From the NCBI GenBank assembly GCA_024276825.1, contig JAJRWI010000077.1:1-64000 (forward strand): DNA of 64,000 bases, read 5' to 3'. The translations under genes were made by a program, and so were the position numbers. Under the pieces are notes generated by a model. It did not search any database. It saw only the letters and a list, made by a program, of their open reading frames with translations, and had not been told where the DNA came from. Numbering within the stretch: the first letter of the stretch is position 1; the number at the start of each line of letters is the position of its first letter. Positions 8,566 through 29,201 of this stretch are shown piece by piece. This DNA comes from an archaeon. GTDB lineage: Archaea > Asgardarchaeota > Thorarchaeia > Thorarchaeales > Thorarchaeaceae.

Positions 8566-8922
8566 CAGATCTTTGACTCCTTACTGAAGTTTGTTCTTCC
8601 AAATAATCACAATTGATAATTTTCCACTTCATTTTTTGATTCAAGTATTTTTAAACTGATTATCAAATCAGATTAAAGAAATATTACATTAGAAATATAA
8701 ATATACAATATATTTTTTAAAAATCATGGATTATCTTATTAGTCACATGCAGTGAATATATCCTATTACTATCAAGCCAGTGGGATTTGAACTCAACCAA
8801 GATGTGTTGCAGTATGGGGACCTATTGCTGCTCACTTTCAATCAACCCAAACGAATACTCCTTGATAGTTATTGGACTTGGGTTCTAATCCCATTGAAGC
8901 ATTTGATGAAGAATCGGACAGG

Positions 8923-10104
8923 ATGCGATATAAAATGCCGAAAGGACTTGCTGTGTTGAAATGGGATGATGAACTTGGACCTGTTGTCACCGCAAAGACT
9001 CCAAGTTCACTAAAGGTTGGACTCGATCCAACAACTAGTATGCGTGTCTATGGAATAGCCACCCTGGGTGAGACTGAGGAGTCTCAGAAGCCAGGATTCA
9101 ATGCTCTGACGTTTGACGAGTTCAGACTAGCTGTGTATTACGGTGGTCTGAATATGCACCTGAAGGGCTTGCCCTCAATGGTCTTCCTTGTTCTTGAACC
9201 TGATGAGGACCCTGATGTGTACAAAGACGCCCTACCGGAGATAGCCACTCAGATCTTTCTTAATGCAGAAAATGATGAATACATCAAAATGGTTCCAAAA
9301 TTATACAAGCAGATTGCACGGTACACCCAGATGTCGCCAGAACAGCGACAGGCGTCAATACTCAACGATCCTGTTAGAAGGGCAATTCTTCAGAAGCTCA
9401 TGCGTGATGGGACGGTGCAATCCACAGATCTTGAGCAGTTGATATTTGAAGAAGTTGGAAAGAAGATTGATGTAGATATTGTACTACGCCCACTGGTAAA
9501 GATGGGAATTATAGCCACCGGTTGGGTTGAGGGTCTGTCTTCTGAAGTCATATACTTGACAAGGGCACTATTCATTCTCAGAACAATCTCACGCGAAACT
9601 GTAAAGGCAGTTCAATCAAAACAGGTTCCTCCTGAAGTGGCCAAGCAGTATATTGATGCCACAAAGAAATATCATCGTGAATACATCGCCCGATTGAGAA
9701 AAGACCTGTCCGAAACAATCTGGGTTGAGGCTGAAACTCTTGCTAAATTCATGCTTGATTTTGATGTCTATGACATCCTGCGAATTCTAAGATCTGGACC
9801 ACAGCAGACCGAACACCTTCCAAGCCTTCTTGAAACCACAAAGGCCAATGTGCGGAAGCATGTCAAAAAGCTTGAGAAGGGCGGCATTGTAATGAGAATA
9901 AATGACGAATCCGGCAGAGAGCATCTTTTATTGAAATGTAATCCTGAGGTAGTCACAGTCTATCCAGAATGGTTGATACAGAGAACCATTGATCTCTACA
10001 ACGATGAAGAGATTGTCAGTCGCCAGGCCATTCATTATCTCGAAGTCCTAAAGGCATCGCATCCAAGTCAATCTCTCTCAGGAAAGATACAGGAGGGTGA
10101 GTAG
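8923..10104 (+). CDS. uDENN/longin-like N-terminal domain plus two winged-helix-like segments
   Basis: N-terminal GLAVLKWDDELGPVV..KTP resembles the uDENN/longin F-D-x3-G-P motif; wHTH-like segments DPVRRAILQKL...LRPLVKMGII and YDILRILRSGP...VRKHVKKLEKGGIV; ATG at 8923 or 8935 preferred over TTG at 8872. Confidence 0.7.
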   Translation: MRYKMPKGLAVLKWDDELGPVVTAKTPSSLKVGLDPTTSMRVYGIATLGETEESQKPGFNALTFDEFRLAVYYGGLNMHLKGLPSMVFLVLEPDEDPDVYKDALPEIATQIFLNAENDEYIKMVPKLYKQIARYTQMSPEQRQASILNDPVRRAILQKLMRDGTVQSTDLEQLIFEEVGKKIDVDIVLRPLVKMGIIATGWVEGLSSEVIYLTRALFILRTISRETVKAVQSKQVPPEVAKQYIDATKKYHREYIARLRKDLSETIWVEAETLAKFMLDFDVYDILRILRSGPQQTEHLPSLLETTKANVRKHVKKLEKGGIVMRINDESGREHLLLKCNPEVVTVYPEWLIQRTIDLYNDEEIVSRQAIHYLEVLKASHPSQSLSGKIQEGE

Positions 10105-13100
10105 ATGAAGCGGGTGGCAAAGCTATCTGTTTTCATCGCACTGACTGTTCTCTTCTTGATTCCATTATCAGGAAATAACACAGTAGCCATTGATACGACC
10201 TTAAATCAAAACAACAATTTCCGGATATATGACGGTGTAACATCAGTAGCGGGCACTCAGGATTTAGCATCTTGGTGGAATTCAAGTTTTATTTATCGGC
10301 GATATTTCAATTTCACAGAACCCAATATAGTGGACCGCACATTGACTCCCGTCCATCCGTTCTTGACTTTTGAGAGTGGGCATTGTTATCGCGACTCGCT
10401 CAGAGTGCTATATTACTCGAATCCCAATTGGATCTCAGTGCCCTTCACTTTATGGAACACTACATATGATGCATCAGGAAACTATATTCTCTCCACAAGA
10501 ATCAGCTTCAAGGTAAATGTGAGTAAGGGTACCACTGAAATGAATTATTATATCTACTACTCAAAGACCTCTATGGGTTCAGTGAGTTATCCAGATTTCT
10601 ATCCATTCGTGTATCGCAGCTACACCTACTCTATGTTGAATCTGATATCATATTATGATAATAACAATTATGTTGTCAAGATGTGGGACACCTCTAATAA
10701 TGTGTGGGATGATCCAAGAAACATCGACACTCAATGGGCATCAGCAACTGGTATCATTCAGTCTGGTGTTGTCACAAATGACCCCACAGGCACTCTAAAT
10801 AGATATCAGGTTGTAAGAATTGAACCAAATGTTGATACATATATCAACACAGCGTTCTTGGGCTTCTATCAGATTGAATCGAATTATCCTTTGGCAGTCA
10901 CAGCAGGAAGTGGTCATAAGAATAGCAACCCTGCTGTTAACGACTGGTATCCAAATGTCAATGAGCTGAGTGATGGCCTTGGAACCAAATTCCTCATTGG
11001 AGGCGTTTCAGGGTTTGATAGCTACTATGAGGGCAAGTATTGGATACAGGCGCACAGCGACAACACTGAAGTATGGGTTTGGACTGTTTCCGAGTCCCTT
11101 GATAGCGGCTGGGTCTTTTACAACAACACTGCAGTCACATCATGGCCTGCAAAACTCTCTGCAGGCGAATATATATCTAAAAGAGATGTGACCTACCAGA
11201 CAGTGTATATGGTCAACTCGACTAAGCCAGTATCCGTCCGAAGCGGAGATGTAGATGCTGCTTATTCGCGTGATGTTATGGGTCCTTATCCATCATTGAC
11301 AGGTTCTCTGGTTGATGAGGAGTTCTATGCAATTGGCATGGGCAATACGGGAGACCGTATCCGTGTCACAAATGTTGGTTCAGATTCTGCTACAATCTCG
11401 GTCTATAGAAATACTGGCTCTGGTTGGACACTAGAAACAAGTCAAATAATAGCCGCTGATGGTTATTATGATATAGCGCCCGGTACTGCCAGTGATACAG
11501 ATCCTGAGGACTTGCTGCATATTGTGGGCACATCTAATGCCAAATTAATGGTAGAAGGTGTTTACAGTCCTACAAGTGCGACCGATTATGGCGATTGGGT
11601 CCCAACAACAAATGGATACCGCTTTGGAACAGACTTCAAACTGTGGGGATTCAGTCAAATGAAGTTCTTCATCTATGCCTGTGAGAATGCACAGGTCTCA
11701 ATCACGGGTGCAAACAGTGGCACTCTTGACATTCCCGCGGGTGGAGCTGATTTCTTTCTACCACTATCATCATCTCCCTCGTTATACACTATCTCATCCA
11801 ATACAACAATCAGCGTGACCAGGGTTGCACGGTTCTATACAAGTGCACCTTATGCCCCATATGGTGACCAGGGCTATGGCTGGATGGTTCCTGCCTATGT
11901 GCCAGATCAGGATGAATATGGGGTCTCTCATATTATCGGAATTGAAAAGCACCTATTCGAGTTTGACATAACCGTTGTCGATCTCGATGGCGAGCCCGTT
12001 CAAGGAGCGTCAGTCAGTATCCATTTCACAAATGGCACACTATGGGTGGACGAGCAGGGCAGGACCAGAACCGGCACAACCGATAGTTCGGGAATGATAG
12101 TCTTTGAGGGTCTCTCGAACCAAACCTATCAGATAAGAACTGGCATCAATGCTGCTTCATGGCTGACCACCTCTGAAACCTACATATGGGTCAATGATAC
12201 CTCAAATCATGCCATAACCTCCTCAGTAACACCAGTTCAGATCACTCTGGATATGGCATCGATTTACATTCACTTGAGTGATTTAGATGGAGTTTCTATG
12301 GATGACACTCCTGATGAAGATGTATTCATGAGGCTCTGCACTGGGGTTGACTTCAACCAATATGTCCATCAGGCTCAAGCCAATGGCACTGGCTGGCTGG
12401 TCTTTCCACGCGTTCCTCAGAACGATTATAACTTGTATGCAAAATACGCTGGTGCTAATGGTTACAATCTGTTTGGATATGAGGTCATTCGAAGGTACGC
12501 CAACTGGACAATCTCTGCCAGTGAGTTTAGTGCAGGATCTATTGTACATAATAATTGGGAATTCCCACTGACCTCTCTTCAGATTCATGTGTACAGCTGG
12601 GACGGAAAGAATGTTCCTAATGCACATGTGGAAATAAACAACACTGCTAATGGTGTGGATTATATTTACATCCTCACAGAAGTGACAAATGGTAGTGGTT
12701 ATGTCACATTCAACAGGATAGTAAATGGCACTTGGAATGTCAATACTTGGAGATATGATGACTTTGGTCAAAAGACTTGGAATAACAGTCAAGTCCTGTC
12801 AAATGTTCAGAGCTTCACCTCTACAGAGATCAATTTACGTCTCACAAGTTTAATTGTTCGTGTAATGACTGGTGGTAATCCCGTTGAAGGCGCAACCGTA
12901 GACCTACTCATTGATAATTCCACATTGCTGGCCACTGGTCAGACAAATGCAAGTGGACACATAACATTTCAATGGATTCGGGGCAATATGACCAGCCCAC
13001 TCAATTATCGCTATTCGGTTAACGTGACAAAGGGCAACTCTTTGAATTGGACTTGGGTGGATGCTGACTACAGCTTAACAACAAACATACTTATACTTCC

Positions 13101-16100
13101 TGAACCGCAATACTCGCAAACATATACTGAACTGTCCTCGACCTCAGGATTTGAGGATGCATTCTGGTATAATAATTTCACATTCTTAATAGAGTATTAC
13201 AACTATACCTCTACACTTGCGACTCCCGAAATGAAAAATATCTCATATGATTTGAGTAGCATATTGACGGTTTCAATTTACACATACGATGGCACCACGT
13301 TAATTGGACAATTCTCATGGACATTAACAACTACTACTTATATTGAGCAGTATCCATCACCGAATCAACGGAAATTCAATGTGACTATTGATCTAGCATA
13401 TTGGAAGCTCAATGCAAGTGGTAACCCGTACAAGGTCATCATCACGGCACATACGGATGGATACGATGATCCCAATGATTTTGTCATATATCTAACAGTA
13501 CATAATGCTCAGACCGCCTTCGGGTCTGACACTGCATTAGCCTTCACAGAACCCTACAGGATGAATGAGGATCATCTCTTCTGGCTTGAAGACTTGTCTA
13601 ATGCGGACTTGGGCAATATCACCGCATTGGATGTCTATTCATATGAGATCTATTCTGGAGGTCTACTCATCCGTTCTGGCAATCTTGTGAACAACACAGA
13701 TGGAACCTTCACACTCCCATCGTCAGCCTTGAATGGCCTGACAGTTGGAAGTTATATTGTTTCAATTAATCTTGATGCATTGAACTATGAGGCAGCTGAA
13801 CAAGGCTTCACACTCACAATTGTGGAAGCCCCCATGAAAATAGCCAACATTGTTGCTCCTGACTACAACTGGGCACCATTACTTGGCACTATTAGTTTTG
13901 AATACCTGCTTAATAATAACAACACTAGTCCAGATCTCGCTGGTGTGAGTTTAACTGTTCGCTGGATCAATCCTACAACCAGCGAAATCGTTGTCACACA
14001 GGAGTTGACTATTAGTCCATTTAGCAGCATATACTATTACAACTTCTCACGAAATATAGTGCCCAGCGGCACATGGGATGTGAATATCACCTGTTCAAAG
14101 TCCAATTATGCAACTGCCACAGCTCTGTATAGTGGAATTGTTGTATCCAATGCTCCTACAACATTAACAGTTGTAGGTAGCAACTCCATCACTGTAGACT
14201 GGGGCGAGTCTGCAGAATTTGAGGTGTATTATGAACGCGTTGAGGACTCTGCATTTTTGGCCTCTGCATCAAGCAGTCATAATTGGACTATATCATCAGT
14301 GCTAATTCGAGATTTGGGTAATGGCCATTACACTATCAGTGTTGAAACCGATATTGAATCAGGAACTTATGCATTGGACCTAACTCTAAGCTACAATAAC
14401 CATGAGAGCAAGTCAATTCTGCTGACAGTTATTGTTCGTGTCCCATTACAGATTGTATCGGAATATAGTTCTGCAGAGAATCCATTGGAAACATACTGGA
14501 CACACAACTTTACTATTGACGTCATAGTATACGACATATCACGAACAAACGTAACTGTTGACGGTGCTGATTTAACATATCAGTGGTATATGCAATATGT
14601 AGTAGATCAAAGTGGTACTCTGACAAACAACGGCAATGGATCATATTCGGTCACTCTCAATGCATATGATGCCCTGCCTTTGAGTCAATTGTATACTGTG
14701 ACAATATCTGCAACCATGGCTGGTTCCACATCATCAAGCATTACTATCTTTGTGCGTATCAACTCCGTACCAAATGAGATAGTCCTAGAACAGAGTTTCT
14801 TTGAGGTATATTATGCAGATGTGTTTGATGTACGATTCTATTGGAACAACACCTTGGATAACCAACCAATAACTTCTGCAGATTCAACAACTTACTATCT
14901 TGCATCACTTGGTACTTATATCACAACAGGTGTAAATGAGGGCGAAGGCTGGTATCACTTTACAGTTGACACCCGGGCTCTGGAAATGAATACTGATGGG
15001 GCAGCAGTTTATGTGATTCAAATAACTCATGCAAAAGATGGATACGCGCCACATGATATCACAACAGTCATCATTCTCGTCAGAGAGACCGATGCATCAC
15101 TTGTAGTGGACCCGATTGACAATGTCAACTGGTCAGACAGCTTCACAATCACCGCAAGTCTATATGATGACAGGCATGGTGACCTAATCTGGATTGGTGC
15201 ACAGGTGACCGTTTCATATGGCACATATTCAGCTGTGATGACCAACAATCTGGATGGCACTTTCACAGTGGCAATAGACTCAGATGCTTGGTTTGCAGCA
15301 TCAGCCATTCCATATAACCTGACATTCACCTATACTATCCCGAATTATGTTGATAGCACCAACTCATCATCAGTCATCATCGACCCGATTCCTGGTGTCA
15401 TAAACAAGGATCCGACAACTGATGATCCAATAGTGGTGATTTGGGGTGATATGGTGACTGTGCGTGTGAGTGTCAATAACATCTATGGTGGTGGAAACAC
15501 GCCGATAGATGACACAGCAGTCTACTATCTATGGAGTGGTTATGATACACTCCATCCAATGACCTTCTTGCCAAGCACCCATGACTACTATGTTGAGTTC
15601 AACTCTAGTGAAGTTCCCTCAGGAAGCTATAACTTGATTGTACGTGTGATCAATGAGAACTTTACGATTCCAGATCTTCTAATCTCCGCAACCGTCAATC
15701 CAGTCAGCACAACTCTGATTGGTGATGTGAACTCCATAGTAGCGATTGTTGGTGTAGACCAGACTGCACGAGTCGTGCTCACATACTCAATGGTTGGTGG
15801 TACACCGCTATCAGGTGCAACAGTCTACTATGACTGGGCTGGACTAACAAGAAATGGAATTCCAAGTGATGGGAACTATGTATGCGACTTTAATCCAAGT
15901 GAAACCACACTTGATGTTCCCGGAGTCTATGTCTTGACCTTCCATGCCGAGCTTCAGAACTATACAGCACAGACCTATAATGTGTCTCTCCATTTGATTG
16001 CACAGACAGAGATTCAGGTCGAGAATCAAGTACTTCAGTCTGACCAGATTCTACGCCTGCACTTCAAGTATTATGATTTGACTAATGATCGCGAGGTGCC

Positions 16101-17280
16101 TGTATCAGCCATCATCAGTCTTACTTTGATTCTCCCGGATGGCAGCACAATGCCTGTAAACCTTGACAACCATGATACAAATGGATACTTTGTAGACATT
16201 GCAGCCACTGCAATTGGTGAAGAGAGCACAGATGCATATCCACTTTACATAATTGCCTTGGCAACTGGCTATCAGAATCACACTCAGACTGAATATCCCG
16301 AGAGCTTCACTGTTCTCATCATCGAACCTCAGATTGAGATTCCAGTACTTTCCAACTTCATTGGTCCCATTCCAAAGTCTTGGTTGATACTGGCAGGTGG
16401 AATCAGCTTCATATTTCTCATTGGAATTGCTGGAGCAGTGGCCATACGCCGCATGAGGATTCCATACCAGATAAAGCAGATCAACAAGGCTCTAAAGGCA
16501 ATTGAGAACCAGAAGCGGGCAGAGGTAGAAGGAATCAAGAGCATGGGTCAGGTGATTGCAGAGCTGCTGGCTCCTGGTCTAGCAGAATTGAATCTACCTG
16601 CCCCAGTGATTGAGGTTGGTCCATCTGAAATATACGAGGAAGTCCTTGATGAGGAGACCGAGGGTCTGCTTGATGAACTAGATGCCCTCGAAGACATTGG
16701 CGAGGCAGAAGGAGCTCCTGAAGAGCCTATTGATTATGAGGCCGAACTTCAGGCTGAACTCGAGGCAGTGGAAGTTCCTGAGGAACCAACTGAGATTAAG
16801 CCAGAGGTTGAGGAAGCGGCAGAAGAGCCAGAGGTGGAAGAGCCCACTGAAGAGGTTGAAGCTGAACCTGAACCTGAGCCTGAAGCAGAGGTTGAAGCTG
16901 AGGCTGAAGAGAAACCCGAACCAGAGGCCAAAGCTGAAGCTGAATTGGAAGGTGAAGAAGCCCCTGTCGAACCTGCCATTGAACCAGAAGCTGAAGAGAG
17001 TGAAGACACAACTACTGAGGAACCTGACTCATTGGAAGAGGAACCAGTTTCTGAAGACTCCGAAGCAGACTCTGAAGAGCCAACTGACGAATCGTTTGAA
17101 GAAGATATGGCCGAGTCGACCGAGTCAACTGATATTGGCGAGTCACTCTCAAAGGAGGAGATCATTGAGCGTTTGCCACCAGAAATCAAGGAATCCATGA
17201 GTGTGGAGGAGTTGAAAGCGCTCACAAAGGAGGAACTCCTTGCCCTTCTCAAGTCACCTAAACAGGGAGGTGAGGAGTGA
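10105..17280 (+). CDS. Giant (2391 aa) single-pass surface glycoprotein A
   Basis: Signal peptide; WWNSSFIYRR DUF2341-like start; prealbumin/Cna-B-like repeats (VVDLDGEPVQGASV, GTTDSSG); Ig-like repeats (DLGNGHY, NNGNGSY); many N-x-S/T sequons; one C-terminal TM followed by an E/P-rich tail. Confidence 0.88.
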   Translation: MKRVAKLSVFIALTVLFLIPLSGNNTVAIDTTLNQNNNFRIYDGVTSVAGTQDLASWWNSSFIYRRYFNFTEPNIVDRTLTPVHPFLTFESGHCYRDSLRVLYYSNPNWISVPFTLWNTTYDASGNYILSTRISFKVNVSKGTTEMNYYIYYSKTSMGSVSYPDFYPFVYRSYTYSMLNLISYYDNNNYVVKMWDTSNNVWDDPRNIDTQWASATGIIQSGVVTNDPTGTLNRYQVVRIEPNVDTYINTAFLGFYQIESNYPLAVTAGSGHKNSNPAVNDWYPNVNELSDGLGTKFLIGGVSGFDSYYEGKYWIQAHSDNTEVWVWTVSESLDSGWVFYNNTAVTSWPAKLSAGEYISKRDVTYQTVYMVNSTKPVSVRSGDVDAAYSRDVMGPYPSLTGSLVDEEFYAIGMGNTGDRIRVTNVGSDSATISVYRNTGSGWTLETSQIIAADGYYDIAPGTASDTDPEDLLHIVGTSNAKLMVEGVYSPTSATDYGDWVPTTNGYRFGTDFKLWGFSQMKFFIYACENAQVSITGANSGTLDIPAGGADFFLPLSSSPSLYTISSNTTISVTRVARFYTSAPYAPYGDQGYGWMVPAYVPDQDEYGVSHIIGIEKHLFEFDITVVDLDGEPVQGASVSIHFTNGTLWVDEQGRTRTGTTDSSGMIVFEGLSNQTYQIRTGINAASWLTTSETYIWVNDTSNHAITSSVTPVQITLDMASIYIHLSDLDGVSMDDTPDEDVFMRLCTGVDFNQYVHQAQANGTGWLVFPRVPQNDYNLYAKYAGANGYNLFGYEVIRRYANWTISASEFSAGSIVHNNWEFPLTSLQIHVYSWDGKNVPNAHVEINNTANGVDYIYILTEVTNGSGYVTFNRIVNGTWNVNTWRYDDFGQKTWNNSQVLSNVQSFTSTEINLRLTSLIVRVMTGGNPVEGATVDLLIDNSTLLATGQTNASGHITFQWIRGNMTSPLNYRYSVNVTKGNSLNWTWVDADYSLTTNILILPEPQYSQTYTELSSTSGFEDAFWYNNFTFLIEYYNYTSTLATPEMKNISYDLSSILTVSIYTYDGTTLIGQFSWTLTTTTYIEQYPSPNQRKFNVTIDLAYWKLNASGNPYKVIITAHTDGYDDPNDFVIYLTVHNAQTAFGSDTALAFTEPYRMNEDHLFWLEDLSNADLGNITALDVYSYEIYSGGLLIRSGNLVNNTDGTFTLPSSALNGLTVGSYIVSINLDALNYEAAEQGFTLTIVEAPMKIANIVAPDYNWAPLLGTISFEYLLNNNNTSPDLAGVSLTVRWINPTTSEIVVTQELTISPFSSIYYYNFSRNIVPSGTWDVNITCSKSNYATATALYSGIVVSNAPTTLTVVGSNSITVDWGESAEFEVYYERVEDSAFLASASSSHNWTISSVLIRDLGNGHYTISVETDIESGTYALDLTLSYNNHESKSILLTVIVRVPLQIVSEYSSAENPLETYWTHNFTIDVIVYDISRTNVTVDGADLTYQWYMQYVVDQSGTLTNNGNGSYSVTLNAYDALPLSQLYTVTISATMAGSTSSSITIFVRINSVPNEIVLEQSFFEVYYADVFDVRFYWNNTLDNQPITSADSTTYYLASLGTYITTGVNEGEGWYHFTVDTRALEMNTDGAAVYVIQITHAKDGYAPHDITTVIILVRETDASLVVDPIDNVNWSDSFTITASLYDDRHGDLIWIGAQVTVSYGTYSAVMTNNLDGTFTVAIDSDAWFAASAIPYNLTFTYTIPNYVDSTNSSSVIIDPIPGVINKDPTTDDPIVVIWGDMVTVRVSVNNIYGGGNTPIDDTAVYYLWSGYDTLHPMTFLPSTHDYYVEFNSSEVPSGSYNLIVRVINENFTIPDLLISATVNPVSTTLIGDVNSIVAIVGVDQTARVVLTYSMVGGTPLSGATVYYDWAGLTRNGIPSDGNYVCDFNPSETTLDVPGVYVLTFHAELQNYTAQTYNVSLHLIAQTEIQVENQVLQSDQILRLHFKYYDLTNDREVPVSAIISLTLILPDGSTMPVNLDNHDTNGYFVDIAATAIGEESTDAYPLYIIALATGYQNHTQTEYPESFTVLIIEPQIEIPVLSNFIGPIPKSWLILAGGISFIFLIGIAGAVAIRRMRIPYQIKQINKALKAIENQKRAEVEGIKSMGQVIAELLAPGLAELNLPAPVIEVGPSEIYEEVLDEETEGLLDELDALEDIGEAEGAPEEPIDYEAELQAELEAVEVPEEPTEIKPEVEEAAEEPEVEEPTEEVEAEPEPEPEAEVEAEAEEKPEPEAKAEAELEGEEAPVEPAIEPEAEESEDTTTEEPDSLEEEPVSEDSEADSEEPTDESFEEDMAESTESTDIGESLSKEEIIERLPPEIKESMSVEELKALTKEELLALLKSPKQGGEE

Positions 17281-17322
17281 ACAGGCTCACTCTTATCCCC
17301 ATTTTCTTATGGAGGCAATGAT

Positions 17323-20300: not shown

Positions 20301-23300
20301 TGGACGCGACGCTCTCAATCTGACTGATCTCGACTTTACGAACTATACAATTTATGACTCCGATAACAATATTATTTCAACAGGCAATCTCACCCATCTT
20401 GGCTCCGGCATCTATCGGTTCTCGGACTCCAACCTCAATACATCAGATGTTGGAAGCTATGAGATTGTAATCTGGCTTCATAAACTGAACTATATGAACC
20501 ATACTTTCACTTTAACAGTCACAATCAATGCAGTGCTAACTGAACTTGTCTGGACCACCGACCCATCTGATTATACTTGGGGCACAGGAATAAGTTTTGT
20601 AACCCTTGAGTTTCGAGATACTGTTCATGGGGGAACGATATCTGGTGTGTCAGTGACGTATTCATGGATAGACGTTTCATCAGGGACAACTGTTCTCGTA
20701 GAGTCATCAAGTTCTCTGACATACTTGTATGCAAACAATATTGTTGCAAATGGCACATATCGAATCTATGCCTATGCCACCAAACAAAATTATCTCGCTG
20801 CTGATAGTACATCTGTTTCTTTTCTGGTTTCTCCCGCAAGTACAAGCATCTCGCTGAAATCATCCGACACAATAACTATTGAATGGGGCAGCGAATATGC
20901 AGAGTTTGACTTTGACTATGTTCAGGCACCTTTCACCGTAGCGGGCGCCTCTGTGATTAATATTGATTGGACTGGAGAATACAGTCTTGTTGATTATGAC
21001 AATGGAACTTACACATTGAGAATGCTTGCAGTTCAAGAAGCAGCAAACTATACAGTCACTTTCACGATGTGGATAGAAAATCGTACCAAGGCCTCAGAGA
21101 CCGTATATGTCAATGTGCTGATCCCATTGGATGTTTCATCATCTGAAGGGAAATCACTACAAGACCCAATTCAGGAGTACTGGACACGTTCATTCATGCT
21201 ACAAGTAATCGCTGGAGATCAATCCAATCAATCAGAATATGTTTCTGGAGTAATTGTCACTTACAACTTTCCAGCGGGTGGTATCTCTGGAACTTTCACA
21301 GAGAACGCCACTGGTCAATACTATTGGCTGGAGTTTCCAGCATCACTTGCTCCTGGTCCTGGAGTGTACGAGATTCAAGTGGAAGCAGCAAGAATTGGGT
21401 GCACAGGAACTTCTCTGTCAATTTACATTGAAGTTCTTCCAACTCCAACAAGGATAACCGCTCAGAATCAATTATTGACAGTCTACTATGCAGACTCTTA
21501 CCTACTCAATTTCAGCTGGTCAACAACTATTGATACTCCTGTTGGCATTGAAGGGCCAGATAATGTGCACATTGAACTATGGAAGAGCACGAGTCTTGTC
21601 AATGGAAGTATTGCTGGTATTGTTGAGCTGGGCAATGGTGACTATCAATTCTTGATGGACACACGAATGCTTGGAATGACCGCAGACTCTCCTCTATTTC
21701 CAACTAGTTATTACTTTGTCATCACAATGAACAAACTTGGATACGAGGAGCCTCTTGCCGTCACAATAATCATTCTTGTCTTGCAGACTCCTACAGAGAT
21801 GACAGCAGATCCAATAGAGCCAGTCATCTGGTCGGAAGATTTCACAGTCAGAGTTCACATTCGCGATATAGTTCACAATGAGTATGTCTGGACTGATGCT
21901 TCAGTATACTTCATTTATGAGGACATTAATGTTACAATGACCTCTCTTGGTAATGGGACATTTGTACTGACTGGCGATTCTGCTGACTATTTCTCATCGT
22001 CAGACTTGCCTCACTCAGTTACTATCATCTATACATTACCAAACTACGTTGATGGACAGATTCAGGTGGAAGTGCAGATCAATCCAAAACCTGCCTATAT
22101 TCTTAATCTACCGCTAGATGATACTTATGACTGGACTGACACAATCGATCTTACTCTGGATATTATTATCAATGGCACAACCACAAGACTTGAGGTTGAC
22201 AGTTGCTACTTCTATTGGAAAGAGTACCCTGCAATAAATGGAACACTCGCATATGATTCAATATTCAACAGATATCTTGGTACGGTGAACACAAAACTAG
22301 TTCCAGCAGGTAACCTGACACTTGTGCTTGCAGCAGTCAAGGGCAACTACACAATTCCTGAGATTGAAATCTCACTGGAAATTAAGCCATTGCCTGCCAA
22401 GCTTAATTCAGTATCTGGTGATCTGCTAACTGTGATATATGGTCTTGATCAGTCAGCTCAGATTATTATGGCATATACACACGGAGACAATGATACTGTT
22501 CTGGAAGGTGCGAGAATCACCTTCATTTGGAATGGCCTTGAGCGTGAGGCTCTGTGGAGTGATGGTCAATACATCTTCGAGTTTAATCCATCATCTGACA
22601 CTTCACTTGAAGTTCCTGGTACTCTGGAACTTGTGTTTACTGCAGCACTTCAGAACTACACAACTGAAACTACCACAGTTCTAATGAGACTCGCTGCAAG
22701 AACCGAAATTGTTGGCGGTCCCTATCGAGTCGAGTCTGAACAATATCTCAATCTTATCTTCAAGTATTGGGATGTTGTCAATGACAGACCCGTTGGGTCT
22801 GCAGCCACGGTTCAATACCAGATTGGAAACAACACCCCTGTCACGGTGACTGCAGAGCAGTTTGATGGAACTCAGTACATAATTCGTATACTTGCCGATG
22901 ACATCGGTGAAGTGAGCCCCGATCCCTATCAGATCCGGATATTTGCAAGCGCACCTGGCTATCAGAATTGGACCGTATTGGATGATCCTCAATACATCAC
23001 AGTCTATGTAGACCCACCTACTGTCCAAATACCATTAATAGGCCTATCAATTGAGAGGTCTACGCTGTTTTTGGTTGGCGGAGTCAGTCTGCTGTTCATT
23101 CTTGGTATACTAGGTGCAATCGCAGTTCAACGCATGCGTATACCTTACCAGATTAAGCAGATTAACAAAGCACTGAAAGCTATTGAGAATGACAAGAAGG
23201 CCCGTGTTGAGGGCATCAAATCCATGGGCACTATCATCTGGGAGCTTCTTGAGCCTGGTCTAGCCACACTCAATATCACCCCTGATGTTCTTGGCGCAAT

Positions 23301-23880
23301 CTTGGAAGCTCCCGTAGAAGAAGAGATTGCACTTGAAACTGAGGAACTCCTTGATGAGCTTGAGGCGCTTGAAGATATTGAGGCCGAACCAACTCGGGAA
23401 GATGCTGCTTATGAGGAAGAATTGGTCGCCGAACTGGAAGAAGCAGTTGAAACCGCCGCGCAACCCGTAGAAGTCACAGGGCTGGTGGAAGAGCAGCCCG
23501 AAACCGGAAAGGCAGAGTTGATGCCAGAGGCTGAAGAAGAAACAACAGAAGAATCGGGGCCTGAAGAGGAACTCGAAGAAGATGAAGAAACTGACACTGG
23601 AGAACCTATTACCGAACCAGAACCCCCAGCTGATGAAGAGCCTAGCATGCCAGATGAAGAACCCATTGAAGATCTAAAGGACGACACAATCGAGCCTGAC
23701 ATGGACGAAACTGAAGAGTCAGCGGGAAACATCGACCGGCCAGAAGAAGATGAATCTGTTGAATCCAATGATGAGGCGCCTGAGCCAGAATCGCAACTAG
23801 ATGAAGCCCCCTCTGATGACTCTGATGAATCATCTGGATCAACTGATCTTGTTGATGGAAATGGTGAAGGTGATGAATGA
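17323..23880 (+). CDS. Giant (2185 aa) single-pass surface glycoprotein B, paralog of A
   Basis: Same domain order as 10105-17280 (WWNTTFHYR; VKDLGGNNIEGANV; LGNGDY; TM; acidic tail); GGAGG RBS. Confidence 0.88.
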   Translation: MLTMRRKILLLSFVLVFLLIPGSNNAIFDTVRQDLAVTNHSTISADIEESTPWWNTTFHYRMHVNLTDTNSTTRVDVPTHVWLTFENNTCYKYSIRVVDSNNVEVPSQVYNYTYWENPNYVKSATVFWYANISADSTSVYWVYFSELTTIEQTNYDSVVWFARTTGALSGKFDVNYWSFRGEWYNVTMYNAAGGKITNGAHKKADGTWDWNWGTNRGSMHWNPDGLGGQATSATPPISGTTFVNINGPLFINYTTQLPFGSYAKLNVTYTFYKWGWITRIYIKYTASTGGSGRTDEWVFYPYLTIEGIEVAPDGTQTYYSNWAPSSNKGLPAGFGWWNNNGISHGTVRILHEAYNMPAGHEDDFNNYYYRWWDTSSYEFWDTYHPSVTVQAGTVLKEECAFAVWNGAEGEDGYMRVFNATSRYLPIFREISNVSSYSFRINVKDLGGNNIEGANVTLLNPITGARLYKPTGAPYTDLTDSDGNVTFIGLLNQTYRIDVWIDTTTWLTPEAGATGMNVTWSGTAVADGPFTPVSITLDLASITIHLDDLAGDPLGTVGAETVKVWIYNASDPSRANWKYMDYETTDSSGDLTFYRLPKCDWLFNFTYSNTDTGHIYTKADFGLYVSHNIDESLITDDLTRSWVLPLTTIDFYVEAYDGQPVENTYVRISKAGTADPIATGVTDSYNITHMTDANGNVTFYRVLKGNWTVVVYRTDDYGQTAYNTSEYVYDTTGYAYKKISIPLTWLRIRVVDNNNNRVTGAKIDLYANGVFLVTAYSDSAGEYNFHWIKANDTSIGWSYTVTISKNTAQTSDSVYASYDYLHWNTITLTPPAYTQKYTELNCTASVYSWYYADNGTFQIGWFNRTSTSPSTWEDQSLNQSEYFAGTMNFTISHNGVVIGFGVWNSTHHLYISHYTSDGIYFTIAIDTLLFKMNASNIPYIITIKAETPNYDAPEEYTVTVVISVASTTRNGATSLEAYYLDGFAALYSLTTNPSGRDALNLTDLDFTNYTIYDSDNNIISTGNLTHLGSGIYRFSDSNLNTSDVGSYEIVIWLHKLNYMNHTFTLTVTINAVLTELVWTTDPSDYTWGTGISFVTLEFRDTVHGGTISGVSVTYSWIDVSSGTTVLVESSSSLTYLYANNIVANGTYRIYAYATKQNYLAADSTSVSFLVSPASTSISLKSSDTITIEWGSEYAEFDFDYVQAPFTVAGASVINIDWTGEYSLVDYDNGTYTLRMLAVQEAANYTVTFTMWIENRTKASETVYVNVLIPLDVSSSEGKSLQDPIQEYWTRSFMLQVIAGDQSNQSEYVSGVIVTYNFPAGGISGTFTENATGQYYWLEFPASLAPGPGVYEIQVEAARIGCTGTSLSIYIEVLPTPTRITAQNQLLTVYYADSYLLNFSWSTTIDTPVGIEGPDNVHIELWKSTSLVNGSIAGIVELGNGDYQFLMDTRMLGMTADSPLFPTSYYFVITMNKLGYEEPLAVTIIILVLQTPTEMTADPIEPVIWSEDFTVRVHIRDIVHNEYVWTDASVYFIYEDINVTMTSLGNGTFVLTGDSADYFSSSDLPHSVTIIYTLPNYVDGQIQVEVQINPKPAYILNLPLDDTYDWTDTIDLTLDIIINGTTTRLEVDSCYFYWKEYPAINGTLAYDSIFNRYLGTVNTKLVPAGNLTLVLAAVKGNYTIPEIEISLEIKPLPAKLNSVSGDLLTVIYGLDQSAQIIMAYTHGDNDTVLEGARITFIWNGLEREALWSDGQYIFEFNPSSDTSLEVPGTLELVFTAALQNYTTETTTVLMRLAARTEIVGGPYRVESEQYLNLIFKYWDVVNDRPVGSAATVQYQIGNNTPVTVTAEQFDGTQYIIRILADDIGEVSPDPYQIRIFASAPGYQNWTVLDDPQYITVYVDPPTVQIPLIGLSIERSTLFLVGGVSLLFILGILGAIAVQRMRIPYQIKQINKALKAIENDKKARVEGIKSMGTIIWELLEPGLATLNITPDVLGAILEAPVEEEIALETEELLDELEALEDIEAEPTREDAAYEEELVAELEEAVETAAQPVEVTGLVEEQPETGKAELMPEAEEETTEESGPEEELEEDEETDTGEPITEPEPPADEEPSMPDEEPIEDLKDDTIEPDMDETEESAGNIDRPEEDESVESNDEAPEPESQLDEAPSDDSDESSGSTDLVDGNGEGDE

Positions 23881-23999
23881 TTGAGAAAAGGCGATAGGTC
23901 AACCATAGACAGGCAATGCTCATATTCATTCTGGCATCTGTATATCATGAAGCCATATCGCCAGTTCCCAACCTGCTGGACATTGGACGGTGATCAAAT

Positions 24000-24881
24000 A
24001 TGATTAGAGAGATTCATGTCTTTAAGGATGGCGAGACTCTGTTCGAGGATGTCATTGTGCCCAACAAAGACCTAGACACAAAAGCAGTAATGATGCTTGT
24101 TTCCTCATCCTGCAAGAAACTGCAAGAGTGGAAAATTGACAGCATGGAGATTGAACGCTTTCGATATGTATACATGAACAGTCATGATACACAATTCATC
24201 ATCACTATGGACCGCCAGGCCTCATTAATGAAGGTTCACGAGGCAATGACATCTGCTGTATCAAAATTCATGACTGCCTTTGAGAGTGTTCTGGAAACTG
24301 ATGAATGGAAATCAACTGACTTTTCACCCTTCAAGGATGGCTTTAGAAGGATTGTCAGTAGGATTCCAGTGAAAGTCTGTCTTGCAGGTCATGGTGGTAC
24401 CGGTAAAACAACTCTTCTTGAGCTTGCCACAATGCCATCGCAAGGGCCACCTCAAGAGTATGTGCCAACTTTCTTTGGCGATAAGGCTCTATTAAAGGCA
24501 GACTTTGATCCATATGTGTTCAGCATGTTTGACCTTGGTGGCCAAGACCGTTTCGTACAAGAATGGGGCAAGATAATTCGGGCTGGTTCTCTTGTTGTGA
24601 TTGTGACAGACTCTACTACTGAGAACTTGGCATGGACCAAGAGAGTCGCTTACCCCGTTCTAAAGAACGAGTTACCTTATGCACGGGCAATAGCAATAGC
24701 AAACAAGCAGGATCTTCCTGGAGCTCTATCGCCTCAAGAGGTGAGCAGGAAGCTGGGAGTACCGGCGTACGGCATGCAGGCAAATAAGATGGACTTTAGA
24801 GATCGATGGTTGAAACTGCTAAGAGGGTTGGCTTTTGAAACCCTTGATTTTGCAGTAGTAGGAGAAATAGAGGTGGAATAA
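24000..24881 (+). CDS. Longin-domain / Arf-like small GTPase fusion
   Basis: G1 GHGGTGKTT, G2 YVPT, G3 DLGGQ, G4 NKQDLP; the N-terminal ~120 aa has a longin-like beta-beta-alpha-beta-beta-beta-alpha pattern. Confidence 0.88.
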   Translation: MIREIHVFKDGETLFEDVIVPNKDLDTKAVMMLVSSSCKKLQEWKIDSMEIERFRYVYMNSHDTQFIITMDRQASLMKVHEAMTSAVSKFMTAFESVLETDEWKSTDFSPFKDGFRRIVSRIPVKVCLAGHGGTGKTTLLELATMPSQGPPQEYVPTFFGDKALLKADFDPYVFSMFDLGGQDRFVQEWGKIIRAGSLVVIVTDSTTENLAWTKRVAYPVLKNELPYARAIAIANKQDLPGALSPQEVSRKLGVPAYGMQANKMDFRDRWLKLLRGLAFETLDFAVVGEIEVE

Positions 24882-24882
24882 G

Positions 24883-25443
24883 ATGTCAGATCCAAGTGAA
24901 ACCACAAAGAGTATACTTAGTGAGGAGGAGCGAAAGAGACTCATCACTGAAATTGGGAATATAAAGAATATTCTTGATAGCTTCAAATATGGCCTGAACT
25001 TCGAGCAATTCGCTGATGCTTTGTTCAAGACCATTGACCGCCAGACACTGGCAATCAACAAGCTAGAGGCGCAGATGAGAGAGATCATTGAGAGAATGAA
25101 GAATCTTGAGAAACGATTCGATGAAGGTATTAGAGTCACAGTTTCTGGAGCTGTGAGTGCCGAAGGTGGTATTGAACCAACAGAAGTGATAATTGGCGAC
25201 AAGGCAGAAGAAAAGGCAAAAGAAGAACCAACTACTCCTCCTGATATTGAAGTCATCAAAAAAGAGATAGAAGAGCTGAAAATCAAAATTGCCAAGCTGT
25301 TCGAGAAGGAGAATGAACTCACTGAGATGGCCATGAATGACCCGGCAGCAGCCGATGAGTATGAAGAGAAAGCAAGAGTTGCTCGTGAAATGAGAGTTGA
25401 ACTGGAGGCCAAGAAAAAAGAATTGGAGGACAAACTGCAATAG
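24883..25443 (+). CDS. Coiled-coil hypothetical protein
   Basis: Two E/K-rich heptad segments joined by a short linker; GAGGTG RBS. Confidence 0.8.
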   Translation: MSDPSETTKSILSEEERKRLITEIGNIKNILDSFKYGLNFEQFADALFKTIDRQTLAINKLEAQMREIIERMKNLEKRFDEGIRVTVSGAVSAEGGIEPTEVIIGDKAEEKAKEEPTTPPDIEVIKKEIEELKIKIAKLFEKENELTEMAMNDPAAADEYEEKARVAREMRVELEAKKKELEDKLQ

Positions 25444-25458
25444 CAATTGAGGTGATCA

Positions 25459-25806
25459 ATGAAAATGGGAATTTTCGATAAATGGAGAAGGAAGAAGCAC
25501 AGAGCTGAAATGAGTGGTACTAAAGTGCCTGCACCACGACCAATTTCTGCAAGGGAAATGAGTTCTGAAGTGCAGGCGGAGATAGTCAGTCTTGTTGCTG
25601 AATATGAGCAATTGTACAAGCGACGATCAGAACTTCAAGCTGAAAGAAGCGAATTGACTGAGCGCCTGGACCGCGGTGAATTGACCGCAATTGAATTCAG
25701 GAAACTTCTGATGGAGAAGATTCAGGAAGCCGCACAAGTGGCAGAGAGCTTAAAAGCAACAGCTGCTCGGTTGACAGAACTCGGCTATCGTGGAGTACTT
25801 CGCTGA
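25459..25806 (+). CDS. Small helical-hairpin/coiled-coil protein (steadiness-box-like motif)
   Basis: Heptads flanking LDRGELTAIEFRK; GAGGTGA RBS. Confidence 0.75.
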   Translation: MKMGIFDKWRRKKHRAEMSGTKVPAPRPISAREMSSEVQAEIVSLVAEYEQLYKRRSELQAERSELTERLDRGELTAIEFRKLLMEKIQEAAQVAESLKATAARLTELGYRGVLR

Positions 25807-25807
25807 G

Positions 25808-27196
25808 GTGGGAACGCTGTCCAGGCGTGAAGATGAAGAACCCGAGACCCCCTCTGATATTGAGGAAAGGACTCGTCAGCTAATGGAGAAAGCATTAGGC
25901 ACCTCTGAATCGACAGATGTGCATGATGAAGGAGCCCCATTAGCACCAAGCACATCTCTCGCGGGACAGATATCTGAAACTTTTTTCAGGATTCAGATTC
26001 GCATGGAAGATCTCATCTCATCGATTGAAGACTCGATTAGGTCTATAGAACCTGAGATCAACGAGTCCCTAAAGAGCACGATTGAATCCATTTCTGAGCG
26101 GTTAAGGCGTGAGGCAGGTCTTGGTGTGTTCACAAGCAAGACAGTGAAAATTGTAAGAGAAGAGCTGGAAAAGGCCCTCTCCGTAGAGGCAGTTCATAAG
26201 GGCCTATTTGCTGCTCTTGCTGAAAGCCGTGAACAGGTGCGTGACATAATTCAAAAAACCAGCCGCGGTTCAATTCGTGAAATTGACAGACGCATTAGCA
26301 CATTACAATCGAAAATTGTTCATGTTTATGCCAGACTGAACGAGCGAGAGCAAGAGATTGACAAGTTAAGATCAACAATAACCGAGCTTCGCAGCAAGAT
26401 TTCCGAGATGAATGACATAATCGCACGTAAGGACAAAGAGATGGCTGAATATGTTAAACGACTTGACTCATTATTAGCAACCAGAGACCAATTGGCTGCA
26501 AAACTTGTCGAACAAGACTCCACCATATCCTCATTAACTGGACAGCTCAAGCAAGCAAGCTCTGAGATATTGCAATTGAAGACAATGATTGAGAAGATGG
26601 ACTCTGCTGAGGAGCTTGTTGTCGAATATGAAAACATGACAAAGACACTATCTGAATTGCAGGGACGCTTGGCTGAACTTCAGGAAACCCTCAAGCAGAA
26701 AGACATGACTATTGACGAGCTAAGCGAAACAATTAAGGAGTTCAATGCCGAGAGATCTGAACTTCAGTCACGTGTGCAAGAATTGGATGAAGAGGTCTCA
26801 CAGCTTCGTGGTGCCAAAGAGGGCTTGCTGTTAGAGATCGAAACCCTCAGGCGAAAGATTGCTGAACTTCAGGCACGTTGGGAACTATTATATCAAGTGG
26901 CTGAGGAAAGCCCTGCTTTCAGAGCATATTTTGTGGTCGCTGATAAGGAACACTGGTTTCCCCTATCTCACCTGTCTTCAGCACTGGGCATTCCTGTTGT
27001 GCGACTGAAACAACAATTAGAACGATTCATAGAAGTTGGTCTCTTAGAGATTGATGGCGACCGCATCCGCCCGAAAAAGCTCACTGAGGTTGTCAAAGAG
27101 GTCTTGGACCAGGATGAAAGGGTCCTTTCAGAGGCGAGGGGGGACTTGGGCATGGGGGATGACACCAATAATGAACAATCAGACAACGATACATGA
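25808..27196 (+). CDS. Long coiled-coil protein with C-terminal winged-helix-like domain (start uncertain, 25790-25817)
   Basis: About 200 aa of continuous heptads, no Walker motifs; C-terminal LSHLSSALGIPVVRLKQQLERFIEVGLLEI wHTH-like segment. Confidence 0.8.
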   Translation: MGTLSRREDEEPETPSDIEERTRQLMEKALGTSESTDVHDEGAPLAPSTSLAGQISETFFRIQIRMEDLISSIEDSIRSIEPEINESLKSTIESISERLRREAGLGVFTSKTVKIVREELEKALSVEAVHKGLFAALAESREQVRDIIQKTSRGSIREIDRRISTLQSKIVHVYARLNEREQEIDKLRSTITELRSKISEMNDIIARKDKEMAEYVKRLDSLLATRDQLAAKLVEQDSTISSLTGQLKQASSEILQLKTMIEKMDSAEELVVEYENMTKTLSELQGRLAELQETLKQKDMTIDELSETIKEFNAERSELQSRVQELDEEVSQLRGAKEGLLLEIETLRRKIAELQARWELLYQVAEESPAFRAYFVVADKEHWFPLSHLSSALGIPVVRLKQQLERFIEVGLLEIDGDRIRPKKLTEVVKEVLDQDERVLSEARGDLGMGDDTNNEQSDNDT

Positions 27197-27221
27197 ATAA
27201 CTAACTGGTAGGTGCATTGAA

Positions 27222-27563
27222 TTGGCAAGATCACTTGACGAAGTAATGAGGTTCCTAGAAAACTATACACTGGCTTGGCATCATTGGCTAATGATTCTAG
27301 CTTTGTTGAAATTGGGGGGTGCAGCGACCAAGGCGCAGATCTTCCCGGTGTACAAGAAGGAGGGCTTTTCTCCTCATGCAATTGAGGATGTGTTTCGCAG
27401 AGATTTGATAGAGCTTGGCGAAGCAATAGATATTGATGGCGACATAGACACTCTTCAAGACTCAACAATGATTTATCTTAGTGATAATCCCAAGTTTCAA
27501 CGGTTCATAAAGAAACATCTGAAGTCGGTGGTCCGAACTCTAAAGATGCAGAGACCGAACTGA
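27222..27563 (+). CDS. Small hypothetical protein, possible winged helix
   Basis: 113-aa ORF, TTG start after a GGTG RBS, last gene of the co-oriented cluster. Confidence 0.7.
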   Translation: MARSLDEVMRFLENYTLAWHHWLMILALLKLGGAATKAQIFPVYKKEGFSPHAIEDVFRRDLIELGEAIDIDGDIDTLQDSTMIYLSDNPKFQRFIKKHLKSVVRTLKMQRPN

Positions 27564-27609
27564 GTCCTGTTCGTAAATCTTTTGAACACATCTATCCTGA
27601 TACGCATGG

Positions 27610-27948
27610 TTGAGCATATTGAGCGTTAGAGCATCAGTTTGCAGTTCATGTGATCGGGCCATTGTGCCCCCTCGAAAAATATGTCCCTACTGCGGGCCTT
27701 CTGTTGAACCAATGAGAACAATAACCCTGGATGGTAAAGGTAAAGTCCTTAGTCATACTACTCTACATATGCCACCCGCTGGCTTTAAGGCCCCACTCCA
27801 TCTTGCTCTTGTTGTTCTAGAACACAATGCAATTGTCTTATGCCATGCTCTAAACGAGTCTGATGCCATGATTAAGATTGGTGACCGCGTTCAAGTTACA
27901 ACAGGCGAAAAGGAACTTCTCTACTATACGAAGATCAGACCTCTTTGA
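27610..27948 (+). CDS. DUF35-type Zn-ribbon/OB-fold protein
   Basis: CSSC...PPRKICPYC, GKGKVLSHT, P.GFKAP and IKIGDRV motifs. Confidence 0.88.
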   Translation: MSILSVRASVCSSCDRAIVPPRKICPYCGPSVEPMRTITLDGKGKVLSHTTLHMPPAGFKAPLHLALVVLEHNAIVLCHALNESDAMIKIGDRVQVTTGEKELLYYTKIRPL

Positions 27949-29195: not shown

Positions 29196-29201
29196 AGGGT
29201 G

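Follow-up and report, generated by a model that had tools for sequence, protein, structure and literature searches.

The closest described systems to the one reported here are two eukaryotic assemblies: GATOR1/SEACIT, in which NPRL2-NPRL3 (Npr2-Npr3) act on the Rag/Gtr GTPases, and C9orf72-SMCR8-WDR41, a longin-DENN GTPase-activating protein (GAP) for Arf GTPases. Asgard archaea, which are close archaeal relatives of eukaryotes, possess many small GTPases together with many longin and roadblock proteins, whose partners and roles are obscure. The accessible parts of the published reports describe an NPRL2-like longin family and longin-GTPase fusions in Asgard archaea (Liu et al., bioRxiv 10.1101/2020.10.19.343400; Tran et al., PMC10933270) as well as the Asgard ArfR GTPases (bioRxiv 10.1101/2024.02.28.582541). 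In the cultured Lokiarchaeon MK-D1, genes for GTPases are generally not found in one operon with those for longin or roadblock proteins, so that its GTPases are not matchable to their regulators by genome layout (Tran et al., PMC10933270). We report the analysis of an eight-gene block, at positions 8923-27563 of a 64,000-nucleotide stretch of Thorarchaeia DNA (the window), that supplies such a match: one longin and winged-helix protein, which we call the adaptor, one longin-Arf-like GTPase, small helical partners and a membrane protein, here a pair of giant surface glycoproteins, with a candidate docking motif. The source is contig C71, part of a Thorarchaeia genome of 2.9 Mb and 98% completeness, and the close homologues carry Thorarchaeota as their source names.

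Like NPRL2 and NPRL3, the adaptor has an N-terminal longin domain followed by C-terminal parts that contain winged helices, and the likeness to GATOR1 would extend to the pairing of a longin regulator, at a membrane surface, with a small GTPase bearing a longin- or roadblock-type domain. However, the adaptor family has no conserved arginine equivalent to the NPRL2 finger (NPRL2 Arg78), a DEPDC5-like partner was not seen here (no search was aimed at one), the GTPase is Arf-like rather than Rag-like and carries its extra domain at the N-terminus rather than the C-terminus, and the membrane tether would be a giant surface protein instead of Ragulator. With C9orf72-SMCR8-WDR41 the adaptor has in common a W-D-x3-G-P motif in the first longin hairpin and, as client, a GTPase of the Arf family, whereas it differs in having winged helices and no DENN core after the longin domain, in keeping the proline of the motif (Pro20) in only 13 of 59 relatives, and in that no arginine-finger partner was identified here. 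A more distant parallel is found in Myxococcus, where MglA, MglB and AglZ (a small GTPase, a regulator of the roadblock/longin superfamily and a long coiled coil) control surface adhesion complexes. There, MglB is a roadblock homodimer, MglA is not Arf-like, no fused longin domain is present and no giant single-pass glycoprotein with a tail motif takes part, so the homology is at the superfamily level only. Within the Asgard archaea, the present G domain finds its best structural match in ArfR1. The accessible text of the published Asgard longin and GTPase accounts describes no cassette, juxtamembrane motif, giant-adaptor fusions or core/accessory split, and no description of any of these was found in the accessible parts of the wider literature searched; the protein families are already published and the cassette itself appears, within those bounds, to be undescribed.

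On balance, we think it probable, if by no great measure, that the block is a conserved Asgard cassette in which a small-GTPase switch operates at the cytoplasmic face of the membrane, under giant surface glycoproteins. We place the adaptor on the cytoplasmic juxtamembrane part of the giants because of gene fusions and a shared motif, and with the longin-Arf-like GTPase because that pairing recurs. The match of receptor, regulator and GTPase is supported by the fusions of a sister lineage and by three parallel adaptor-GTPase pairs in the one genome.

The fusions are found in Promethearchaeota, where the whole adaptor forms the C-terminus of single-pass giants of 1300-2660 residues, beginning about 110 residues past the transmembrane helix. 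The sequence K-I-P-x-F-V-K-K-V-R-x-M-K-K-A-I that follows the membrane in the fused proteins aligns with R-I-P-Y-Q-I-K-Q-I-N-K-A-L-K-A-I of both giants of the present block. A scan of species-representative genomes with the fused Promethearchaeota module gave 190 relatives, and 76 loci were kept, about half of them fused forms; by a reading of the listing, an Arf-like GTPase gene lies within about 3 kb in roughly 24 of some 33 fused loci with enough flank, and this GTPase often has 327 residues with an N-terminal extension. Beside that gene, in two of the loci (L011 12594-13421 and L012 15555-16415, both minus strand), stands a conserved gene for a protein of 275-286 residues with no Pfam match, which may be a further partner in Promethearchaeota.

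Unfused arrangements recur in other lineages. A Jordarchaeaceae contig encodes the adaptor, a 282-residue Arf-like GTPase and a 107-residue protein; an unassigned contig encodes a 1770-residue giant, the adaptor, a 282-residue GTPase and proteins of 105 and 234 residues; and in a second Thorarchaeia family a 2040-residue giant is followed directly by the adaptor. The juxtamembrane motif is present in both of these giants. The present genome itself holds two further pairs of adaptor-like and Arf-like genes. On contig C33 (17536-20250, L009) the gene for a 379-residue adaptor-like protein overlaps that of a 287-residue longin-Arf protein by 19 nucleotides, ahead of a 203-residue coiled coil, and on contig C81 (26784-30278, L010) the gene for a 378-residue adaptor-like protein lies about 800 bp from that of a 515-residue Arf-like protein. 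The latter has its G domain at residues ~51-188 and a C-terminal extension of ~300 residues without a family match.

Approximately the same half of the 87 Thorarchaeia genomes encodes an orthologue of the adaptor (67-79% identity) and one of the GTPase (74-90%), with both on one contig in nearly all cases. Gene order was compared in 20 fetched Thorarchaeia loci. A long form, comprising the adaptor, one or two giants, the GTPase, coiled-coil proteins of 186, 115 and 468 residues and a 113-residue protein, is found at all 14 fetched loci with a giant, and a short form, comprising the adaptor, the GTPase and the 115- and 113-residue proteins, at four of four loci and also in genome G038. In genome G003 the order is adaptor, type-2 giant, second adaptor, type-1 giant, GTPase. 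The gene for the 186-residue protein is present at all 15 fetched loci with a giant (the 14 above and that of G015, whose giant carries a deletion) and at none of the five without. Judged by coordinates, orthologues of the 468-residue protein occur at 19 of the 21 loci where a giant separates adaptor and GTPase and at one of the 13 where none does; the adaptor adjoins the GTPase in 13 genomes, 12 of which lack the gene, the exception being G030, in which it is kept and the giant and the 186-residue protein are absent. The 186-residue protein thus tracks the giant strictly in the fetched loci and the 468-residue protein nearly so, a co-variation that amounts to few evolutionary events, since the genomes are kin and all of the short forms fall in two genera. 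In G015 (L046 5065-7450) we also observed a 'mini-giant' of ~790 residues, a type-2 giant in which an internal deletion has brought residues ~1-117 next to ~1590-2081; it keeps the signal peptide, the last part of the stalk, the transmembrane helix, the motif and the tail, and all of the partner genes are intact.

The interval that houses the cassette runs from a thiolase gene to a ChsH2-like gene (window 8565-27610, with the corresponding interval in L020-L048) and is prone to insertion and deletion, a hot spot within an otherwise syntenic region. Its states are empty, the 115-residue protein only, short cassette, long cassette, duplicated cassette and an unrelated giant. In G043 and G021 the thiolase gene abuts the ChsH2-like gene, and in G010, of the same genus, only the gene for the 115-residue protein stands between them, as a relic. 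In Thorarchaeia the cassette behaves as a unit at this one chromosomal slot, and the block consists of a four-gene core (adaptor, GTPase, 115- and 113-residue proteins) and an accessory set (giants, 186- and 468-residue proteins). A preliminary description of this DNA had proposed one complete module, with co-conservation in relatives as a test of it. The co-conservation is borne out, with the full order at every fetched Thorarchaeia locus with a giant and with adaptor, GTPase and giant adjacent or fused in other Asgard lineages; the module is indeed kept as a unit at one slot, but it is divisible into the two parts just named.

Each giant has a signal peptide and a single C-terminal transmembrane helix. 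Sequons of the N-x-S/T type number 46 in the ectodomain and none in the cytoplasmic part of giant 1, and 53 and one, respectively, in giant 2, and the tails, of ~200-225 residues, are rich in Asp and Glu (41% in giant 1, 42% in giant 2). The two proteins are 33% identical over stalk, transmembrane helix and motif, with a juxtamembrane segment that is, by eye, ~80% identical, and their heads do not align. The stalks give immunoglobulin-like or carboxypeptidase-regulatory-like hits that range from sub-threshold to threshold, and Pfam searches with the heads alone return nothing beyond a sub-threshold RamC_N match of 19.5 bits. In this genome the juxtamembrane motif is confined to these two giants. 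Orthologues of giant 1 (40-57% identity) occupy the same place in other Thorarchaeia, and the giants form two orthologous groups, that of giant 2 being present in, for example, G003, G009 and G013. At the C-terminus of giant 1 there is also a motif of ~37 residues, L-x-K-x-E-I-x-x-R-L-P-P-E-I-K ... E-L-K-x-L-T-K-x-E-L, which giant 2 lacks; the same motif ends the acidic tails of two unrelated Thorarchaeia giants, that of G052 (3349 residues, twice) and that of G082 (3638 residues), and might serve the surface giants of this class as a second docking element of wider use.

The adaptor is modelled by AlphaFold2 with a predicted local distance difference test score (pLDDT) of 93.6, and its residues 8-132 follow the order beta-beta-alpha-beta-beta-beta-alpha-alpha of the longin topology (strands 8-15, 19-26, 58-63, 68-73 and 83-91; helices 36-48, 97-113 and 120-132). 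The likely true start is Met5 (8935), where the relatives begin. The top match by VIA-align, with Z 12.3, is 8yqg_A, the longin domain of a Lokiarchaeota Roadblock-Longin protein. The longin part also superposes on 7t3b_B, which from its chain length we take to be NPRL2, with Z 11.1 and a root mean square deviation (rmsd) of 2.6 Å over 120 residues, on SEAC chains that are presumably Npr2 with Z 10.8, and on the longin domains of Ykt6, VAMP7, Lst4, DENND1A and FLCN with Z of about 10. Foldseek returns only four matches with E below 1e-3, all of them GATOR1 chains of NPRL2/NPRL3 size (145-445 columns, E 1.6e-4 to 1e-3); the alignments over 299-445 columns have an rmsd of 13-23 Å, good superposition being restricted to the longin part. 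Because the spread among longin families is small, with VIA Z running from 12.3 to 9.8 across Asgard, NPRL2, Ykt6, VAMP7, Lst4, FLCN and DENND1 longins, 'NPRL2-like' describes the architecture more than it proves descent; the adaptor very probably belongs to the published 'NPRL2-like' Asgard longin family.

The preliminary description had called this protein uDENN/longin-like and labelled it DENN/longin-wHTH (winged helix-turn-helix). The longin fold and the winged-helix part stand, the latter being two winged helices in the AlphaFold2 model, and the DENN part does not. Pfam finds no DENN family in the protein even at E up to 1, the alignments to DENND1A and DENND10 are confined to the longin part, and residues 139-346 form two winged helices and a helical linker with no DENN core, so that the nearest eukaryotic architecture is that of NPRL2/NPRL3. 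An ESCRT-II-like reading of the winged helices was also set aside, the Foldseek matches to Vps22/Vps25-type chains (E ~4e-3) being too weak.

Relatives of the adaptor number 196 among 1.84 billion representatives, and 59 were aligned. The first hairpin reads W14-D15-x3-G19-P20, conserved in 56, 47, 56 and 13 of the 59 at W14, D15, G19 and P20, respectively. Human C9orf72 has W33-D34 and G38-P39, the same spacing, and the G-P motif is found in Asgard longins too, according to the available part of the report (PMC12290439). In the longin part of the alignment no arginine reaches 90% conservation; position 17 is Arg in 28 of 59 relatives and Glu in the present protein. A further relative, a standalone adaptor-like protein of 367 residues (L100, DATKTW010000037.1), is filed under the label 'Candidatus Nanopelagicaceae bacterium' and is more likely to come from a mis-binned Asgard contig than to be a bacterial gene.

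The GTPase matches Pfam Arf with 47.7 bits (cut-off 22.3) at residues 124-255, and the G1 GxxxxGKT, the switch-I Thr157, the G3 D-L-G-G-Q-D-R-x-x-x-x-W and the G4 N-K-Q-D are conserved. Among solved structures, the G domain is closest to Asgard ArfR1 (8oum), Arf1, Arl8b and Arl6; with the whole protein, the structural searches are filled by G domains. Among ESM Atlas clusters of Thorarchaeota and Promethearchaeota, full-length matches of 269-274 residues are found with template modelling scores of 0.82-0.84. In the model (pLDDT 85) the N-terminal domain, residues 2-98, runs beta-beta-alpha-beta-beta-beta-alpha with a long last helix, so that the protein begins with a domain of longin order and not with the N-terminal amphipathic helix of Arf type. 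A roadblock reading of this domain was rejected, since the model opens with two strands and not with a helix. Ahead of the G domain (residues ~101-121, window 24300-24362) lies a short helix with a conserved F-x-x-F (residues 111-118), at the position of the amphipathic helix in Arf proteins.

An interaction between the components was implicit in the preliminary description. Prediction of a complex of adaptor and GTPase gave a median score of 0.37 (runs of 0.37, 0.00 and 0.46), above the best control at 0.01, with at least 11% contact agreement among the runs and a partner pLDDT of at least 79. Of 80 solved complexes, 58 attain the mark set for this score, as do two of 110 mismatched pairs; at scores of 0.60 or lower only seven of the 80 solved complexes attain it, along with both of the passing mismatches. 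The predicted interaction is weak support, a small addition to a favourable prior from gene context.

If the cassette works as we favour, the adaptor would dock on the juxtamembrane helix of the giants, in trans here and in cis in the fused forms. Its longin domain, of C9orf72 type (W-D-x3-G-P, with no family-wide arginine), would partner the GTPase, possibly through contact between the two longin-like domains, of the kind seen in NPRL2-NPRL3 or C9orf72-SMCR8. Acting as a GAP partner, a guanine nucleotide exchange factor or a platform, the adaptor would determine which nucleotide the attached Arf-like G domain carries, and the GTP-bound form would bring in the coiled-coil proteins, by which the giants would be clustered, anchored or delivered. 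Information might flow outside-in, as sensing, or inside-out, as control of adhesion or placement. The analogy with integrin adhesion or receptor sorting that the preliminary description drew is conjectural, as is any exchange-factor role. Judged by its sequence, a C9orf72-type motif without a conserved arginine would be more in keeping with a platform, or with the half of a longin pair that has no catalytic role, than with a GAP of NPRL2 type. The fuller claim, that the block is a transmembrane coupling device leading from the giant adhesin ectodomain through juxtamembrane helix, adaptor and GTP state of the GTPase to a coiled-coil scaffold, or in reverse, we hold to be possible but doubtful; if true, the device would be a prokaryotic forerunner both of receptor-coupled small-GTPase signalling and of the eukaryotic longin GAP complexes. 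The cassette bears on what the Asgard Arf-like GTPases act on and on whether longin GAP complexes predate eukaryotes, and it points to which Asgard surface proteins may be wired to the cytoplasm. The set could be tested with soluble proteins and a peptide of ~50 residues.

Several observations weigh against this account. A GAP role as in NPRL2, FLCN or SMCR8 is unsupported, given the lack of a conserved arginine. Comparison of the profiles of the GTPase N-terminal domain and the adaptor longin domain gives an in-register alignment with a probability of only 11%, for which reason we make no claim of homology between the two, and one of the three runs of the complex prediction scored 0.00. The core works without an adjacent giant, as the existence of the short form argues, and the GTPase gene beside the fused giants of Promethearchaeota is usually on the opposite strand, so that the two do not form one operon. 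The carboxyltransferase, biotin carrier, thiolase, ChsH2-like and acyl-CoA dehydrogenase genes are syntenic at every locus; since these flanks are as syntenic as the block, shared descent contributes alongside selection to gene order within the class, and that order taken alone is weak evidence for an operon. In G052 (L041 3225-13274, minus strand) and G082 (L042 353-11269, plus strand) the slot holds a single giant of 3349 and 3638 residues, respectively, without the juxtamembrane motif and with no adaptor or GTPase beside it, which argues that the slot attracts giant genes in its own right. Finally, the second winged helix of the adaptor passes the Pfam thresholds of ArsR-type families at residues 283-324 (HTH_20, 32.4 bits, cut-off 27; HTH_5, 22.9 bits, cut-off 22), which is compatible with DNA binding.

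This last point leads to the alternative that fares best, though we judge it unlikely: a transcriptional circuit in which the adaptor is a DNA-binding regulator of ArsR type, with a longin domain that responds to the GTPase or to some ligand, and the block consists of a regulator gene together with the surface-protein genes under its control, rather than encoding a membrane complex. Beyond the Pfam matches, the second winged helix superposes on the ArsR-family repressors SqrR and HlyU (VIA Z 8.8, 21% identity, rmsd 1.6-2.3 Å) and is, in the present protein, ArsR-like and slightly basic; the adaptor gene is the first of the block, behind a promoter-like gap; public annotations name relatives of the adaptor as ArsR, HxlR or MarR regulators; and, in the accessible parts of the published work, Asgard NPRL2-like longin domains are fused to two-component signalling domains. 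Against such a regulator stands the tethering of the whole module to the membrane as the C-terminus of giant single-pass proteins in dozens of Promethearchaeota species-representative genomes. Across the family the charge of the winged helices and of the presumed recognition helix ranges from neutral to acidic (median net charge -1), unlike that of typical DNA binders, and tandem winged helices also match NPRL2/3 and ESCRT-II, where such domains bind proteins.

The favoured cassette must also be set against the behaviour of the slot. It might be that the hot spot is merely shared, with giants as its cargo and the adaptor-GTPase core as an independent cytoplasmic switch, their adjacency being functionally meaningless. 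Indeed, some genomes have nothing at the slot, some have just the core there and others have unrelated giants and no core, the flanking genes are equally syntenic, and the short-form genomes have motif-like proteins elsewhere, or none that was found. Yet giant, motif and adaptor occur fused, in two other genomic contexts the adaptor gene comes immediately after a giant gene, the juxtamembrane motif is missing from the unrelated giants of the slot and the 186-residue coiled coil disappears along with the giant, all of which makes a mere sharing of the slot quite improbable.

In eukaryotes Sar1, Arf and SR-beta act in membrane insertion, export or vesicle delivery. That the GTPase and its partners likewise serve insertion, export or vesicle/tubule delivery of large glycoproteins rather than signalling would suit the Arf-family G domain with its weak SR-beta match (E 0.0083), clients of 2200-2400 residues and coiled-coil partners that co-vary with the giant, but it is the least probable of the alternatives, given that no coat, translocon or glycosylation gene lies within the block, that the core persists without an adjacent giant and that a transient delivery step accords less well than a stable complex with the permanent adaptor fusion of Promethearchaeota.

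Table 1. Features of the block and its borders (nucleotide positions are those of the window; residues are those of the encoded protein)
Feature	Position	Strand	Basis or remark
AT-rich intergenic region, likely promoter of the block	8566-8922	.	357 bp, 31% GC
NPRL2/C9orf72-like adaptor, 393 residues	8923-10104	+	AlphaFold2, Foldseek, VIA, Pfam
Adaptor longin domain, residues 1-135	8923-9327	+	AlphaFold2 model
Adaptor winged helix 1, residues 139-221, then helical linker		+	AlphaFold2 model
Adaptor ArsR-like winged helix 2, residues 280-346	9760-9960	+	Model and Pfam
Giant surface glycoprotein 1, 2391 residues	10105-17280	+	Signal peptide, variable head, immunoglobulin-like stalk, transmembrane helix, tail
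Giant 1 transmembrane helix, residues ~2092-2114	16378-16446	+	
Giant 1 juxtamembrane motif around R-I-P-Y-Q-I-K-Q	16447-16602	+	
Giant 1 polyacidic tail	16603-17277	+	
Giant 1 C-terminal L-P-P-E-I-K / E-L-K-x-L-T-K-x-E-L motif	17146-17256	+	
Giant surface glycoprotein 2, 2185 residues	17323-23880	+	Paralogue with different head
Giant 2 transmembrane helix	~23059-23127	+	
Giant 2 juxtamembrane motif	23128-23283	+	Same as that of giant 1
Giant 2 polyacidic tail	23284-23877	+	
Longin-Arf-like GTPase, 293 residues	24000-24881	+	Pfam Arf, motifs, model
GTPase longin-order domain, residues 1-98, then linker helices	24000-24293	+	Model
GTPase G domain, residues 122-280	24363-24839	+	Pfam, motifs
Coiled-coil protein, 186 residues, accessory	24883-25443	+	
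Coiled-coil protein, 115 residues, core	25459-25806	+	Likely start 25465 (Met3), where relatives begin
Coiled-coil protein, 468 residues, accessory	25790-27196	+	
113-residue protein, core within Thorarchaeia	27222-27563	+	
Hairpin and T-rich run, overlapping last stop codon	27556-27582	+	Consensus scan only

The coordinates are collected in Table 1. All eight open reading frames lie on the plus strand where the preliminary description had placed them, and most of what it had said of the layout and products is upheld: gaps of about 0-120 bp (measured, in order, as 0, 42, 119, 1, 15, -17 and 25 bp), internal ribosome-binding sites (Shine-Dalgarno-like GGAGG, GAGGTG or GGTGAT upstream of six starts), a promoter-like AT-rich gap ahead of the block, two single-pass giants with a conserved cytoplasmic motif, a longin-fused Arf-like GTPase, by its Arf match and the longin strand order of the modelled N-terminal domain, and three coiled-coil proteins. 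The spacer before the gene for the 468-residue protein becomes +1 instead of -17 if that gene starts at GTG 25808. Over 8600-8760 the GC content falls to 19%, against 44% for the whole block; a scan for promoters of sigma-70 type, whose consensus is not meaningful for an archaeon, gave 46 sites where 40.8 are expected, which is background.

The coiled-coil-like status of the 186-, 115- and 468-residue proteins rests on many weak hits to coiled-coil families. The 115-residue protein, which occurs in short and long forms and, in G010, alone, has a conserved N-terminus, M-G-[LI]-F-D-x-W-R-R-K-K, and a conserved C-terminus, L-G-Y-R-G-V-L-H. Weak homologues of ~105 residues follow the GTPase in L015 (Jordarchaeaceae) and L016, and the adaptor in Hodarchaeota. 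Distant homologues start with M-G-L-I-N-K-V-V-S-F-F-K-G-L-L and M-G-I-W-G-R-I-K-S-W-F-G-S-L-F-K-R, both reminiscent of the amphipathic helix at the N-terminus of Arf proteins; by analogy, the N-terminus of the present protein (window 25459-25500) could be a membrane anchor supplied in trans. The 468-residue protein ends in a domain (residues ~375-445, 26912-27124) that is possibly winged-helix-like, with matches to HemN_C (21.6 bits) and a wHTH family (15.4 bits) that are both under cut-off. The 113-residue protein, with 55-77% identity across short and long forms, has no match in Pfam or NCBIfam, and an ESM Atlas feature search with it returned unnamed clusters only, at scores of up to 0.87.

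The flanks are a conserved neighbourhood of acyl-CoA metabolism, with a carboxyltransferase 5S-like subunit, a biotin carrier and a thiolase upstream (window 5287-8565) and a ChsH2-like OB-fold protein and an acyl-CoA dehydrogenase downstream (window 27610-31029). On the minus strand of the downstream flank, at 29227-31029, an open reading frame of 600 residues that has no Pfam match is conserved across Thorarchaeia.

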